From: Escherichia coli
GTDB taxonomy: Bacteria; Pseudomonadota; Gammaproteobacteria; Enterobacterales; Enterobacteriaceae
DNA: 40,009 bases
Assembly (NCBI RefSeq): GCF_003334765.1
Contig: NZ_QOWT01000036.1
Strand: one strand, 5' to 3'
The notes below the pieces were generated by a model. It had not been told where the DNA came from. It ran no database searches and saw only the letters and a program-made list of their open reading frames with translations. Below are positions 981 to 4,666 of the stretch, piece after piece (within the stretch, counting starts at the first letter, position 1; each line of letters starts with the position of its first letter). A program made the translations under genes and the position numbers.

Positions 981-3221
981 TCAGAAGTGGGTGTTTACGC
1001 TCATATACCACGTACGTCCCGGCTCGTTATAGGTATACGCCCCGGCACCGGCGATATAGTTGGCCCCTGCCAAATCGCCCGTGGTCTGGGCATTACCCGC
1101 ACGCCACAAACGTTTGTCGAACAGATTGTCCACGCCGCCGGTCAGACTGACATTCTTCGTCACATCCCAGGTCGCGCTCAGGCCAACAATGCTGTAAGGA
1201 CTAATTTCTTTGGTTTCCGGTCCAACCGCTGGCTGACCTTTATAGTTGTACTTCTTCGGCTGCTGCTTGCCGTACCAGGTGAAGGTCGTTTGCATCGACA
1301 AATCTTCCCGTGCCTGCCAGCTCAGCGTTGAGTTCAACGTATACTCCGGGATGATCGACAAACGGTCGCCCGTGGTTTTGTTTTCACTCTTCAGCATATA
1401 AGTGATGTTATTGGTCCACATCACCGTTTCGCTAACCGGTACGTTTAACGATCCTTCCAGACCTTCAACCACCGCTTTCGGCACGTTATCCCACTGATAG
1501 AGATCGGTGCCGACTGCGTTTTGCCCTACAGCCACATAGCCCGCTTCAATCTTATTGCGATAATCGTTACGGAACCAGGTGACGCCCGCCAGCCACCCGT
1601 CGCGTTTGAACTCCAGACCAATCTCTTTGTTGATGCTGGTTTCTGCTTTCAGGTCATCGTTACCTTGCAGATAGCAGCCGCCCGCGCTGGCATAGCAACC
1701 CTGACCTTTACTGTAGAGAATGTAGTTCGGGTTAGTCTGGTACAGGCTCGGCGCTTTATAAGCACGGGCGATGCCCATTTTCAGCGTGAAGTCATCGCCT
1801 AAACCTTGCGATATGTTCAGCGCCGGGCTCCAGTTATTGCCGACAATACTGTGATGATCGAAACGCAGCCCCGGCGTTACGATGGTGCTGTCAGTCAGCT
1901 CCATGTTGTTTTCGGCAAACAGCGAGAAAATTTCTGCTTTTGAATACGGGCTACGGTCGGTGGTACTCACGCCATCAATAGCGCCACCGGTATTCGTTCC
2001 GGTCAGTGCCTGGGTGTTGGAACTTAAGTCCTTCATCCGTTGCTGATTCCACTCCGTACCCAGCGTCAGCGTCTGGTTAACGAGGAAATCAATCGGCAGG
2101 TTAACTTCGCTGTGCAGCATCACGTCATCAAGATCGATATCGACGAAATCCTGTGTCGCTTTTTCGTTAAATTTCCCTTCGGTACCGCCCGCCAGACCTT
2201 CCGGAATACGCGAGTTACGGGTGTGTTCGTACTGCACCCAGTTGCTGGTGGTCACGCCGTTATCCCAGCCACCGTTCCAGGTCAGCGCGTAGTTCTGGCG
2301 ATACAGACGGTTGGTTTCATCGCCATATTTCGAGCGGGTATAGGAATCGGAGTTGGTATTCTGGGTGTCGCCCGCATACAGGTTACCCTGGCGGCTGTAA
2401 CCTGCTTCCAGTTCCAGCGATTGCAATGGCGCGAAATCCCAGCGCACCACGCCATTAATATCTTTGTTGATTACCCCTTCGCGCCCGGCTGGTAACGTCG
2501 TGGCATACGTTCCGGCACGCGCGGACTGATGGCCCTGGTTGATATCCCACGCGTCAGCCTGGGTTTTGTCGAGGTTGCCATACAAACGGAAGCTGAATTC
2601 GTCGCCCAGCGGACCGGTCAGGCTAAAGTTAGTGCGTTTGGTGGCACCTTCCTCTTTATGTTCTGGCGCATTGAAATATGCGTCCCAGGAGCCGTGCCAC
2701 TCGCCGCTGCCTTTTTTGGTAATGATGTTAACCACGCCGCCCGCCGCGCCGTTGCCATAACGCGCAGCTGCCGGACCACGCAGAACTTCAATACGTTCAA
2801 TCATTTCAGGTGGCACCCAGGAAGTATCACCACGGGTATCGCGCTCGCCACGCCAGCCCTGACGCACCGAGTTACGGCTGCTTACCGGCTTGCCGTCAAT
2901 CAAAATCAGCGTGTTTTCCGGACCCATACCGCGAATATCAATCTGTCGGTTATTCCCACGCTGACCACTGGTGGAGTTACCGGTCAGGTTAACGCCTGGC
3001 ATGGTACGGATGATCTCCGACACATCGCGGGCAACCGGGTTTTTGCGGATTTCATCTGCGGTGATGGTCGAAACGCCAGGCGCCTGTAAGTTCTGCTCGG
3101 CGGCGGTAACGACAATAGTATCGTCATGTGAAACAGGAGTATCGGTCGGCTCTTGTGCCTGCGCTACCCCATAAATCCCCAGATTGACCAACAAGGCCAG
3201 GGAATGAATCTTCTTGTTCAT
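981..3221 (-). CDS. fepA: Ferric enterobactin outer-membrane TonB-dependent receptor FepA (746 aa precursor)
   Basis: Begins MNKKIHSLALLVNLGIYGVAQAQEP (signal peptide), has the TonB-box-like DTIVVTA and ends in the C-terminal aromatic residue expected of a beta-barrel. The 766-aa ORF in the track is over-extended by 20 codons. Confidence 0.95.
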   Translation of the reverse strand: MNKKIHSLALLVNLGIYGVAQAQEPTDTPVSHDDTIVVTAAEQNLQAPGVSTITADEIRKNPVARDVSEIIRTMPGVNLTGNSTSGQRGNNRQIDIRGMGPENTLILIDGKPVSSRNSVRQGWRGERDTRGDTSWVPPEMIERIEVLRGPAAARYGNGAAGGVVNIITKKGSGEWHGSWDAYFNAPEHKEEGATKRTNFSLTGPLGDEFSFRLYGNLDKTQADAWDINQGHQSARAGTYATTLPAGREGVINKDINGVVRWDFAPLQSLELEAGYSRQGNLYAGDTQNTNSDSYTRSKYGDETNRLYRQNYALTWNGGWDNGVTTSNWVQYEHTRNSRIPEGLAGGTEGKFNEKATQDFVDIDLDDVMLHSEVNLPIDFLVNQTLTLGTEWNQQRMKDLSSNTQALTGTNTGGAIDGVSTTDRSPYSKAEIFSLFAENNMELTDSTIVTPGLRFDHHSIVGNNWSPALNISQGLGDDFTLKMGIARAYKAPSLYQTNPNYILYSKGQGCYASAGGCYLQGNDDLKAETSINKEIGLEFKRDGWLAGVTWFRNDYRNKIEAGYVAVGQNAVGTDLYQWDNVPKAVVEGLEGSLNVPVSETVMWTNNITYMLKSENKTTGDRLSIIPEYTLNSTLSWQAREDLSMQTTFTWYGKQQPKKYNYKGQPAVGPETKEISPYSIVGLSATWDVTKNVSLTGGVDNLFDKRLWRAGNAQTTGDLAGANYIAGAGAYTYNEPGRTWYMSVNTHF

Positions 3222-3383
3222 TGTTTTATTCCTGCATTTTTGCCACGAATTGCAACTGTCGGGCATGGTCGTCATCAACACGACGCATCCCGCTACCGCG
3301 AAAACCTTTGATCCTGAAAGACACGCAGTGCAGTTGGTTAATTAATGTCCGCGCTTCCCACGGCGCGCCATTACGCTATTGCA

Positions 3384-3416
3384 AATGCAAATAGTTATCA
3401 ATAATATTATCAATAT
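3384..3416. promoter_or_regulatory. Fur-box array in the fepA/fes divergent promoter region
   Basis: gcaaatagttatcaataatattatcaatat is built from GATAAT-like hexamers (gttatc, aataat, attatc) typical of Fur operators. It lies in the 242-bp spacer between divergently transcribed fepA and fes. Confidence 0.6.
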
Positions 3417-3463
3417 ATTTCTGCAATCAATGAAAAATTGCACAGTAAACATGGGGTTATGGT

Positions 3464-4666
3464 GTGACGGCGTTAAAAGTAGGAAGTGAGAGCTGGTGGC
3501 AGTCGAAACATGGCCCGGAATGGCAGCGTCTGAATGACGAAATGTTTGAGGTCACTTTCTGGTGGCGTGATCCCCAAGGTTCTGAAGAATACTCGACGAT
3601 AAAGCGCGTATGGGTCTACATCACTGGTGTGACCGATCACCATCAGAACAGCCAGCCCCAGTCGATGCAGCGAATTGCAGGCACTAACGTCTGGCAGTGG
3701 ACGACACAACTCAATGCCAACTGGCGCGGCAGCTACTGCTTTATTCCCACCGAACGCGATGACATTTTTTCTGTACCATCCCCCGATCGCCTCGAATTGC
3801 GCGAAGGCTGGCGAAAACTATTACCCCAGGCGATAGCCGATCCGCTGAACCTACAAAGCTGGAAAGGCGGGCGAGGGCACGCTGTTTCTGCACTCGAAAT
3901 GCCGCAAGCGCCTCTGCAACCGGGATGGGATTGTCCGCAAGCGCCAGAAATACCTGCCAAAGAAATTATCTGGAAAAGTGAACGGTTGAAAAAGTCACGG
4001 CGTGTATGGATTTTTACCACCGGCGATGCAACAGCAGAAGAACGCCCGCTGGCAGTTTTGCTCGATGGCGAATTTTGGGCGCAAAGTATGCCCGTCTGGC
4101 CAGTGCTGACTTCGCTGACCCATCGTCAGCAACTTCCTCCCGCCGTGTATGTGTTGATCGACGCTATCGACACCACGCACCGCGCCCACGAACTGCCGTG
4201 TAATGCGGATTTCTGGCTCGCAGTACAGCAAGAGTTATTACCCCTGGTGAAAGCTATTGCCCCTTTTAGCGATCGTGCCGATCGCACCGTGGTTGCCGGG
4301 CAGAGTTTTGGTGGGCTTTCCGCGCTGTATGCCGGACTGCACTGGCCTGAACGCTTTGGCTGTGTATTAAGCCAGTCAGGATCGTACTGGTGGCCGCATC
4401 GGGGCGGGCAGCAAGAGGGCGTGTTACTTGAAAAGCTAAAAGCTGGTGAAGTTAGCGCCGAAGGTCTGCGCATTGTGCTGGAAGCGGGTATTCGCGAGCC
4501 GATGATCATGCGGGCCAATCAGGCGCTGTATGCGCAATTACACCCCATAAAAGAATCCATTTTCTGGCGTCAGGTTGACGGCGGACATGATGCGCTTTGT
4601 TGGCGCGGTGGCTTGATGCAGGGGCTAATCGACCTCTGGCAACCACTTTTCCATGACAGGAGTTGA
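3464..4666 (+). CDS. fes: Enterochelin (ferric enterobactin) esterase Fes; 400 aa from GTG at 3464, or 374 aa if the ATG at 3542 is used
   Basis: Translation matches Fes and contains the GQSFGG serine-hydrolase motif. The first codon at 3464 is GTG, preceded by a G-rich stretch (gggg at 3454-3457). The stop overlaps the ybdZ start region. Confidence 0.88.
   Translation: MTALKVGSESWWQSKHGPEWQRLNDEMFEVTFWWRDPQGSEEYSTIKRVWVYITGVTDHHQNSQPQSMQRIAGTNVWQWTTQLNANWRGSYCFIPTERDDIFSVPSPDRLELREGWRKLLPQAIADPLNLQSWKGGRGHAVSALEMPQAPLQPGWDCPQAPEIPAKEIIWKSERLKKSRRVWIFTTGDATAEERPLAVLLDGEFWAQSMPVWPVLTSLTHRQQLPPAVYVLIDAIDTTHRAHELPCNADFWLAVQQELLPLVKAIAPFSDRADRTVVAGQSFGGLSALYAGLHWPERFGCVLSQSGSYWWPHRGGQQEGVLLEKLKAGEVSAEGLRIVLEAGIREPMIMRANQALYAQLHPIKESIFWRQVDGGHDALCWRGGLMQGLIDLWQPLFHDRS

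Follow-up and report, generated by a model that had tools for sequence, protein, structure and literature searches.

The region between fepA and fes in the 40,009-nucleotide stretch of Escherichia coli DNA analysed here (the window) is the classical bidirectional promoter-operator through which Fur represses the enterobactin cluster in E. coli, serving fepA leftward and fes-ybdZ-entF rightward. The reading preferred for this locus combines a Fur-repressed fepA-fes switch, a fes start at the GTG at position 3464, and upstream ATGs that are non-functional as starts, and is held with a probability of about 0.9. Neither the control region, a textbook Fur operator, nor the assignment of GTG as the fes start is new. 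Sequence comparison over 3200-3560 found the window identical to K-12, and matches occur in 5415 of 5426 complete genomes of E. coli. The locus is the same as the published K-12 fepA-fes promoter-operator, with DNA that does not differ at any position (Pettis et al. 1988, Hunt et al. 1994, and Escolar et al. 1998, as cited in PMC2189734 and PMC4469952). An earlier note made from the letters alone had recognized a divergent fepA/fes control region with a Fur operator, and its coordinates are confirmed on the sequence. As the fepA start codon occupies 3219-3221 on the minus strand, the first intergenic base is 3222. The features discussed below are collected in Table 1.

Table 1. Features of the fepA-fes region in window coordinates (strand "." for features given without orientation).
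Feature	Position	Strand	Basis or remark
fepA CDS, ferric enterobactin outer-membrane receptor	981..3221	-	RefSeq annotation of a 100%-identical strain, and K-12
fepA 5′ leader (inferred)	3222..3394	-	start near 3394 deduced from the predicted -10
GC-rich palindrome CGCGCT-TCCCAC-GGCGCG, early fepA leader	3350..3368	.	conserved
Fur operator (published DNase I footprint mapped onto the window)	3372..3419 (about)	.	PMC2189734 Table 3
Putative fes promoter	3380..3407	+	by eye; -35 TTGCAA 3380-3385, -10 TAATAT 3402-3407
Predicted fepA sigma-70 promoter	3401..3430	-	-35 TTGATT 3430-3425, 18-nt spacer, -10 TATTAT 3406-3401
fes 5′ leader, ~50 nt	3414..3463	+	5′ end inferred from promoter positions
19-codon same-frame extension of the 12-codon ORF, from ATG 3430 (MKNCTVNMGLWCDGVKSRK, then stop)	3430..3489	+	no Shine-Dalgarno; polymorphic
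In-frame TAA	3446..3448	+	frame: TAA ACA TGG GGT TAT GGT GTG
12-codon ORF (MGLWCDGVKSRK, then stop)	3451..3489	+	judged incidental
fes Shine-Dalgarno GGGGT	3453..3457	+	GAGGT, AGGGT or AAGGT in other genera
Two-codon ORF ATG-GTG-TGA across the fes GTG	3459..3467	+	ATG only 1 nt past the Shine-Dalgarno
fes CDS, enterochelin esterase, 400 aa, GTG start	3464..4666	+	RefSeq and K-12 annotation
Met27 codon of Fes, former 374-aa start	3542..3544	+	judged non-initiating

The position of the operator is taken from the Fur DNase I footprint given in Table 3 of PMC2189734 (U00096.2 611868-611915), converted by adding 777 to reach U00096.3 and then subtracting 609273 to reach window coordinates. The Fur-like array that had been noticed at 3384-3416 between the divergent genes is present, reads AATGCAAATAGTTATCAATAATATTATCAATAT, and lies inside this footprint. 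Within it, four in-phase hexamers at 3394-3417 (GTTATC AATAAT ATTATC AATATA) agree with NAT(A/T)AT at 5, 5, 6, and 4 of 6 positions, respectively, and PMC2189734 describes the fepA-fes Fur sites as a cluster of 4, with 18.7 bits. Against the 19-bp Fur consensus GATAATGATAATCATTATC the top 19-mer of the region, at 3381-3399, matches at 13/19 positions; 17 of the 19-base windows in 40 kb score 13/19 or better, the strongest of them at other ent-cluster control regions. Judged by such motif matches, the Fur array exceeds chance expectation. Among 78 Enterobacteriaceae genomes positions 3362-3415 retain at least 90% identity, as does the footprint block at about 3372-3419, and the stretch CTATTGCAAATGCAAATAGTTATCAATAATATTATCAAT is almost unchanged among the 78 loci. 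AT-rich Fur hexamer arrays are likewise located between the divergent iron-uptake operons at fepD-entS and fepB-entC in the same window, gene names that are inferred here from K-12 coordinates, and these score 16/19 at 12929-12953 and 15/19 at 15449-15588, so that the fepA-fes match of 13/19 is the weaker one. Both of these stronger matches fit coordinates in PMC2189734.

The predicted fepA promoter has 9/12 consensus matches in the promoter scan and overlaps the Fur operator. The putative fes promoter, with 8/12 matches, falls under the scan threshold, and its -35 and -10 elements also overlap the operator. From these positions the fes transcript would begin around 3414, some 20 nt away from the start inferred for fepA; this agrees with the separation of 19 bp between the fepA and fes transcription starts stated in PMC4469952. 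In the presence of iron, Fur-Fe2+ would occupy about 3372-3419, and since the two back-to-back promoters have their -10 and -35 elements in the covered stretch, both would be off; iron limitation would leave the fepA and fes promoters both active. Fur repression has been seen with fepA and fes fusions (PMC6686035, PMC4676285). According to a cited study, a fes fusion is not regulated by CsrA. The conserved leader block contains a pattern resembling a CRP half-site, which was rejected on inspection by eye.

The fepA leader folds ordinarily (z = -0.30), as does the fes leader (z = +0.85), which is AU-rich and predicted to be unstructured. A riboswitch or attenuator is rejected because the leader has no Rfam match and neither leader folds unusually well, and a sequence scan of the control region found no terminator-like site. 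The palindrome in the early fepA leader shows 70-90% column identity over the 78 genomes and forms a perfect CGCGCT...AGCGCG repeat in most species.

The start codon of fes has been assigned in two ways. The early literature and older K-12 records use an ATG that gives 374 aa, whereas the current reference and the present analysis use the GTG that gives 400 aa, the latter being the annotation in RefSeq and in NC_000913.3 (NP_415117.2); the GTG corresponds to K-12 position 612737. The earlier note had counted 400 codons from GTG 3464 and 374 from the in-frame ATG 3542, and both counts are correct, with the ORF ending at 4666. A TAA at 3446-3448 closes the frame 18 nt upstream of GTG 3464, so these two codons are the only candidates. 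The note had left the choice between them unresolved from sequence; the conservation of the start, the spacing from the Shine-Dalgarno, the pattern of substitution by codon position, an ancient N-terminal motif, and the solved structures together lead to GTG 3464.

With respect to ribosome binding, within the fes leader only GGGGT pairs with the anti-Shine-Dalgarno (-5.4 kcal/mol), and it stands 5-6 nt before GTG 3464. It takes the form RRGGT in 77 of the 78 scored loci, with GGGGC in locus L075; one further locus, L079, was left out of start scoring as it has no detectable Shine-Dalgarno element. All 78 scored loci have an in-frame start 3-10 nt past the conserved Shine-Dalgarno, which is GTG in 67, and Enterobacter, Lelliottia, and Leclercia have no alternative to the GTG start. 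The surrounding block TAAACATRRGGTTA is conserved across the 78 genomes more than the Shine-Dalgarno alone requires. Ribosomes would bind GGGGU at 3453-3457 and initiate at GTG 3464 to produce the 400-aa esterase. Downstream of that start, column entropy over codons 1-31 is 0.39, 0.39, and 0.87 at the first, second, and third codon positions, the third being about twice the first two, a pattern by which codons 1-26 of Fes are judged to evolve as coding sequence.

The protein itself points to the same start. NCBIfam model NF007758 matches Fes with 703 bits against a cutoff of 222 and aligns residues 2-398 to profile positions 14-417. PF11806 and PF00756 of Pfam also match; PF11806 begins only at residue 29, and therefore one curated model leaves out the N-terminal segment. 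In a 12-sequence alignment, residues G7, S8, W11, W12, Q13, G17, P18, W20, and R22 are invariant, and W12 and P18 keep a conservation of 90% or more in sequences as distant as 30% identity; on these alignments, the GSxxWW…P motif of the segment is ancient. An AlphaFold2 model built from a 77-sequence alignment (12 close sequences gave a pLDDT of 52, which was unusable) has a pLDDT of 95.4, with 89-98 over residues 1-30, and shows the N-terminal domain and alpha/beta-hydrolase fold of the solved structures. Its N-terminus consists of a helix at 9-13, a strand at 19-22, and a strand at 27-35, of which Met27 is the first residue. Crystal structures expressed from a 400-aa-type ORF are available for Shigella flexneri (2B20, 3C87, 3C8D, and 3C8H, 96-97% identical to the window protein) and Salmonella (3MGA, 73%), and the window model superposes on them at 1.4-2.5 Å over 390-395 columns; for 3C87_A the TM-score is 0.94-0.97 and the rmsd 1.5 Å over 392 columns. 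The 2B20 structure has 391 ordered residues, and the solved structures show the N-terminal segment to be placed within the ordered Fes protein.

These observations also bear on the suggestion that fes yields, besides the 400-aa protein initiated at GTG 3464, an N-terminally truncated 374-aa form from ATG 3542. This ATG is in frame and was the annotated start in older K-12 records, and PMC2189734 gives a distance of 149 nt between fes and the Fur site upstream of it, which fits ATG 3542. Pairing with the anti-Shine-Dalgarno is, however, weak there and wrongly spaced (-2.4 kcal/mol, gap 11), Met27 is found in only 4 of 79 sequences (E. marmotae naturally has ATC, for Ile), and the truncated form would lose the conserved GSxxWW…P motif together with both helix 9-13 and strand 19-22, so that its N-terminus would lie within strand 27-35 of a confidently folded domain. 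A second product is for these reasons very unlikely. Fes is reportedly a protein that Brickman and McIntosh purified in 1992. The fes gene is repressed by Fur in the media of published ribosome profiling. The TRAINSPOTTER N-terminomics, Salmonella riboproteogenomics, and TetRP supplements, and likewise those of Giess et al. 2017 and Stringer et al. 2021, contain no entry for fes, b0585, or the K-12 coordinates; all five studies used iron-replete media. A literature search on the fes start codon, the N-terminal sequence, or an upstream ORF returned nothing relevant.

Upstream of GTG 3464, the leader holds ATGs at 3430, 3451, and 3459, which in E. coli are out of frame with fes. Those at 3430 and 3459, like the in-frame TAA at 3446-3448, had escaped the earlier note. 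The ATG at 3451 does open a 12-codon ORF that overlaps GTG 3464 and stops at 3487-3489, as had been described, reading ATG GGG TTA TGG TGT GAC GGC GTT AAA AGT AGG AAG TGA. The possible role that the earlier note allowed for it is not supported, as the ORF has no Shine-Dalgarno of its own, is lost in E. albertii, and occurs at a chance level. The ATG is formed where a conserved CAT meets the fes Shine-Dalgarno, whose first G completes it, and the ORF is 12 codons long only because the Shine-Dalgarno-to-start spacer of Escherichia is 1 nt shorter than in other genera. The 50-nt leader contains 3 ATGs compared to 2.2 ± 1.0 in dinucleotide shuffles (P = 0.38), and 49% of shuffled leaders contain an ORF of 10 or more codons that opens at an out-of-frame ATG and overlaps the start. 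On this comparison of sequences, the short ORF most likely arose by chance as a side effect of the ribosome-binding site.

The opposing explanation is that E. coli translates the short ORF, with 12 codons from ATG 3451 or 19 from ATG 3430, and that this ORF acts in cis to lower or tune Fes synthesis, a cis-regulatory effect being expected because the ORF reads through both the fes Shine-Dalgarno and the fes start codon. The ORF exists, the stretch 3425-3492 is the same in 3840 of 5410 E. coli genomes, and the sequence block around ATG 3451 is conserved; the start codon itself has a homologue in 51 of 78 loci, where the resulting ORFs have 3, 5, 12, or 110 codons, and its position reads ATA in the sister species E. 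albertii and in Klebsiella and Raoultella. One E. coli genome has a GGGG run short by one G, which shifts the frame of the 12-codon ORF, and ATG 3430 is ATA in UTI89 and in three other Escherichia lineages (Escherichia sp. MOD1-EC7003, E. whittamii, and E. albertii). An AU-rich leader that is predicted to be unstructured favors Shine-Dalgarno-independent loading, and as such leaders can support this kind of initiation, low-level initiation at ATG 3430 or 3451 is possible. Against it, neither ATG is preceded by a Shine-Dalgarno (anti-Shine-Dalgarno duplex energies of +0.4 kcal/mol upstream of ATG 3451 and +2.2 upstream of ATG 3430), ATG 3451 overlaps the Shine-Dalgarno of fes, and an equivalent ORF arises in half of the shuffled leaders. 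The small-ORF supplement of Stringer et al. has no entry at the coordinates of the ORF, which counts as weak evidence because fes is repressed in the medium used. The ORF shares with attenuation leaders and start-overlapping upstream ORFs a short ATG-initiated reading frame in the 5′ leader that overlaps the main start codon. Unlike regulatory leader ORFs, it lacks its own ribosome-binding site and a conserved start, frame, length, or peptide, and it is accompanied by neither a terminator nor a coupled or alternative RNA structure. A regulatory function of this ORF in E. coli is thus quite improbable, and the ATGs at 3451, 3459, and 3430 are inferred to be non-functional as starts, with the short ORFs left untranslated.

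A further variant concerns ATG 3459, which is the annotated in-frame start in Citrobacter (MxVTAL) and could be an ancestral loading site. Ribosomes would load there, translate ATG-GTG-TGA, and re-initiate at GTG 3464 by a GTGA-type coupling of termination and reinitiation, an arrangement that would be served by the overlap of TGA 3465-3467 with GTG 3464-3466. An ATG 1 nt past the Shine-Dalgarno is too near for initiation from that element, however, and ATG 3459 is missing but the GTG kept in Enterobacter, Lelliottia, Leclercia, and C. sedlakii. With its 6-nt spacing the GTG can be used directly, which requires no coupling, and reinitiation at fes is extremely unlikely. The shortening of the spacer by 1 nt in Escherichia would have placed the AUGs at 3451 and 3459 and the E. 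coli-specific one at 3430 out of frame, and the idea that the resulting ORFs form a lineage-specific brake on Fes is highly doubtful. If it were true, with ribosomes loading on the leader independently of a Shine-Dalgarno, the short ORFs could lower Fes relative to the downstream ybdZ-entF.

The preferred reading, of a Fur-repressed switch followed by direct initiation at GTG 3464, carries little weight as a discovery, since the operator is known and the reference annotation already begins fes at the GTG. The short ORF should have no place in small-protein catalogues unless it is directly evidenced. The annotated ATG start of Citrobacter fes is probably two codons too long. For E. coli, the analysis provides sequence-based grounds for a 400-aa Fes, which are useful when fes is to be cloned or deleted.

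Of 5426 complete E. coli genomes, 5415 have a match to positions 3100-3700, which reaches at least 99% identity in 2577, and over 3200-3560 the window shows no differences from K-12 MG1655. All of the strings reported in the earlier note are found in the window at the positions it gave.

Features of the fepA-fes intergenic region and its flanks (window positions unless indicated)
Feature	Position	Strand	Remark
fepA start codon	3219-3221	-	first intergenic base is 3222
WP_001174912.1 ORF	3226-3426 (427-627 in comparison locus L002)	-	across Fur operator and fepA leader
Putative fes promoter	TTGCAA 3380-3385, TAATAT 3402-3407	+	weaker, identified by eye; within or against operator
AT-rich array	3384-3416		between fepA and fes
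Predicted fepA promoter	-35 3430-3425, -10 3406-3401	-	sigma-70-like; within or against operator
ATG 3430 ORF	3430-3489	+	frame of ATG 3451; 19 codons, MKNCTVNMGLWCDGVKSRK; not in earlier note
TAA	3446-3448	+	in frame with fes, 18 nt upstream of GTG; not in earlier note
Short ORF	ATG 3451 to TGA 3487-3489	+	reads MGLWCDGVKSRK
ATG-GTG-TGA	3459-3467	+	two-codon ORF across GTG start, stop overlaps fes GTG; not in earlier note
fes ORF	GTG 3464 to 4666	+	400 codons
ATG 3542	3542	+	fes frame; 374 codons remain

The choice of fes start codon, which the earlier note had left open, is decided on comparative and structural grounds for GTG 3464, the codon already annotated by RefSeq/PGAP and in the K-12 reference (NP_415117.2). 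The upstream TAA limits an in-frame start to this GTG or ATG 3542. The sole leader element pairing with the 3′ end of 16S rRNA is GGGGU at 3453-3457 (-5.4 kcal/mol), located 5-6 nt before the GTG, and the anti-Shine-Dalgarno match of ATG 3542 is weak and mis-spaced (-2.4 kcal/mol, gap of 11). An in-frame start codon lies 3-10 nt past a conserved RRGGT in all 78 loci and is GTG in 67, with 6 nt between the two in Escherichia and 7 nt in the majority of the remaining genera. No candidate besides this start is available in Enterobacter, Lelliottia, Leclercia or Citrobacter sedlakii, and just 4 of 79 sequences have ATG (Met27) at codon 27. In 21 sequences from Escherichia, Citrobacter and Intestinirhabdus, column entropy over codons 1-31 is 0.39, 0.39 and 0.87 at codon positions 1, 2 and 3, a pattern that is the same further downstream. 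In the clinical isolate E. coli XH989 (comparison locus L003, 1865-3353), an IS91-family transposase insertion cuts fes after 120 nt and the gene is annotated as a pseudogene.

The N-terminal segment encoded between the two codons is conserved and folded. Residues G7, S8, W11, W12, Q13, G17, P18, W20 and R22 are invariant in a 12-sequence alignment, W12 and P18 are at least 90% conserved as a GSxxWW…P motif among 77 sequences, homologues that share just 30-47% identity begin to align at query residue 3-7, and the NCBIfam equivalog NF007758 spans residues 2-398. An AlphaFold2 model built from the 77-sequence alignment has a mean pLDDT of 95.4 (89-98 for residues 1-30), contains a helix at 9-13 and strands at 19-22 and 27-35, and superimposes on Shigella Fes crystal structures at 1.5-2.5 Å over 390-395 columns. 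The crystal structure 2B20 has 391 ordered residues, a count that must include most of residues 1-26. According to the model, a Met27 start would remove the helix along with the first strand and open inside the next strand. The one item discordant with the GTG start is Pfam PF11806 (Enterochelin_N), which starts at Fes residue 29 and leaves out the conserved, folded GSxxWW…P segment (residues 1-28, window 3464-3550); this boundary looks like an inheritance from the older 374-residue annotation.

The spacer from GGTTA to the GTG is 1 nt shorter in Escherichia than in Citrobacter and Enterobacter. This deletion shifts the fes ATG annotated in Citrobacter (MxVTAL) out of the reading frame in Escherichia, where ATG-GTG-TGA is left, and also accounts for the 12-codon length of the short ORF. 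As the Citrobacter ATG is only 1 nt past the Shine-Dalgarno sequence, that annotation probably includes two codons too many.

The 12-codon ORF is present as originally described; a role for it, left open in the earlier note, is not supported, as every test of membership among regulatory upstream ORFs that was run came out negative. It is best read as incidental because it lacks Shine-Dalgarno pairing of its own, varies in start and length, involves ATGs at chance level and coincides with no terminator, Rfam or folding signal. No anti-Shine-Dalgarno pairing is found upstream of ATG 3451 (+0.4 kcal/mol) or ATG 3430 (+2.2 kcal/mol), and the former is composed of a conserved CAT and the first G of the Shine-Dalgarno sequence (CATGGGGT). 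A homologous ATG occurs in 51 of 78 loci, namely wherever the first Shine-Dalgarno purine is G, and mostly opens ORFs of three codons (MGL* or MRL*) or five, with 110 codons in two Citrobacter genomes; the 12-codon length is restricted to Escherichia plus one coincidental case. The triplet is ATA in E. albertii, Klebsiella, Raoultella and others, as is ATG 3430 in E. coli UTI89, Escherichia sp. MOD1-EC7003, E. whittamii and E. albertii; within E. coli, 3425-3492 is identical in 3840 of 5410 genomes. Dinucleotide shuffles of the 50-nt leader reveal no ATG excess (3 versus 2.2 ± 1.0, P = 0.38), and 49% of shuffled leaders carry an ATG-initiated ORF, out of frame and 10 or more codons long, that runs across the start. 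The region contains no terminator-like site or Rfam match, and folding of the fes and fepA leaders is not unusual. Low-level Shine-Dalgarno-independent initiation may occur on the AU-rich leader; a slight damping of Fes translation by the out-of-frame AUGs specific to Escherichia is very improbable. The absence of fes from the supplements of the initiation-site and N-terminomics studies searched is expected, since Fur represses the gene in the media used. E. coli ISHS7 (locus L087, ~3453-3456) has GGG for GGGG, which may be a homopolymer sequencing error and places ATG 3451 in the fes frame; PGAP annotates the GTG regardless.

Other elements between the two genes are also conserved. Around the fes Shine-Dalgarno sequence, TAAACATRRGGTTA (3444-3459) is 70-99% conserved among 78 Enterobacteriaceae genomes, which is more than a Shine-Dalgarno sequence needs by itself, whereas the remaining fes leader is at 10-60%. 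The upstream part of the block, TAAACAT, would lie ~50-60 nt ahead of the inferred fepA transcription start. A GC-rich palindrome, CGCGCT TCCCAC GGCGCG (3350-3368; most other species have it as a perfect CGCGCT…AGCGCG), and GCCATTACGCTATTG next to it (together 3347-3380) are 70-99% conserved and lie to the left of the Fur hexamers, within the initial ~45 nt of the fepA leader. Some RefSeq E. coli genomes, e.g., CH10268, carry an annotated 66-residue hypothetical protein, WP_001174912.1; a C-to-G change at window 3377 in CH10268 abolishes a stop codon (minus strand TAG to TAC). As this ORF starts ahead of the inferred fepA transcription start, the call is almost certainly spurious.

The Fur-like array pointed out in the earlier note is real and previously characterized. 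The DNase I footprint of Hunt et al. 1994, tabulated by Chen et al. 2007 as U00096.2 611868-611915 with four overlapping Fur sites as a cluster centered at 611889 (PMC2189734), converts to window 3372-3419 with a center at 3393, so that the array at 3384-3416 falls within it; offsets were +777 between K-12 versions and then -609273 to the window, anchored on U00096.3 (fepA end 612494, fes start 612737). Four in-phase hexamers, GTTATC AATAAT ATTATC AATATA, occupy 3394-3417, and the top 19-mer at fepA-fes matches the Fur consensus at 13/19 (3381-3399), a score of at least 13/19 being reached by only 17 19-base windows in the 40 kb scanned. The best matches, 12929-12953 (16/19) and 15449-15588 (15/19), correspond in position to the K-12 fepD-entS and fepB-entC divergent control regions. 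In an alignment of 320 nt per locus (window 3192-3511, ending 30 nt into the conserved GS(E/D)xWW motif) comprising the window and 77 genomes from other Enterobacteriaceae species, identity is at least 90% over 3362-3415 and CTATTGCAAATGCAAATAGTTATCAATAATATTATCAAT is nearly invariant. The promoter positions predict start sites near 3394 (fepA) and 3414 (fes), consistent with the 19-bp separation quoted for the two genes (PMC4469952). The sequence is the fepA-fes bidirectional Fur-controlled region as published, not a variant of it, and the finding is an ordinary one that was known before.
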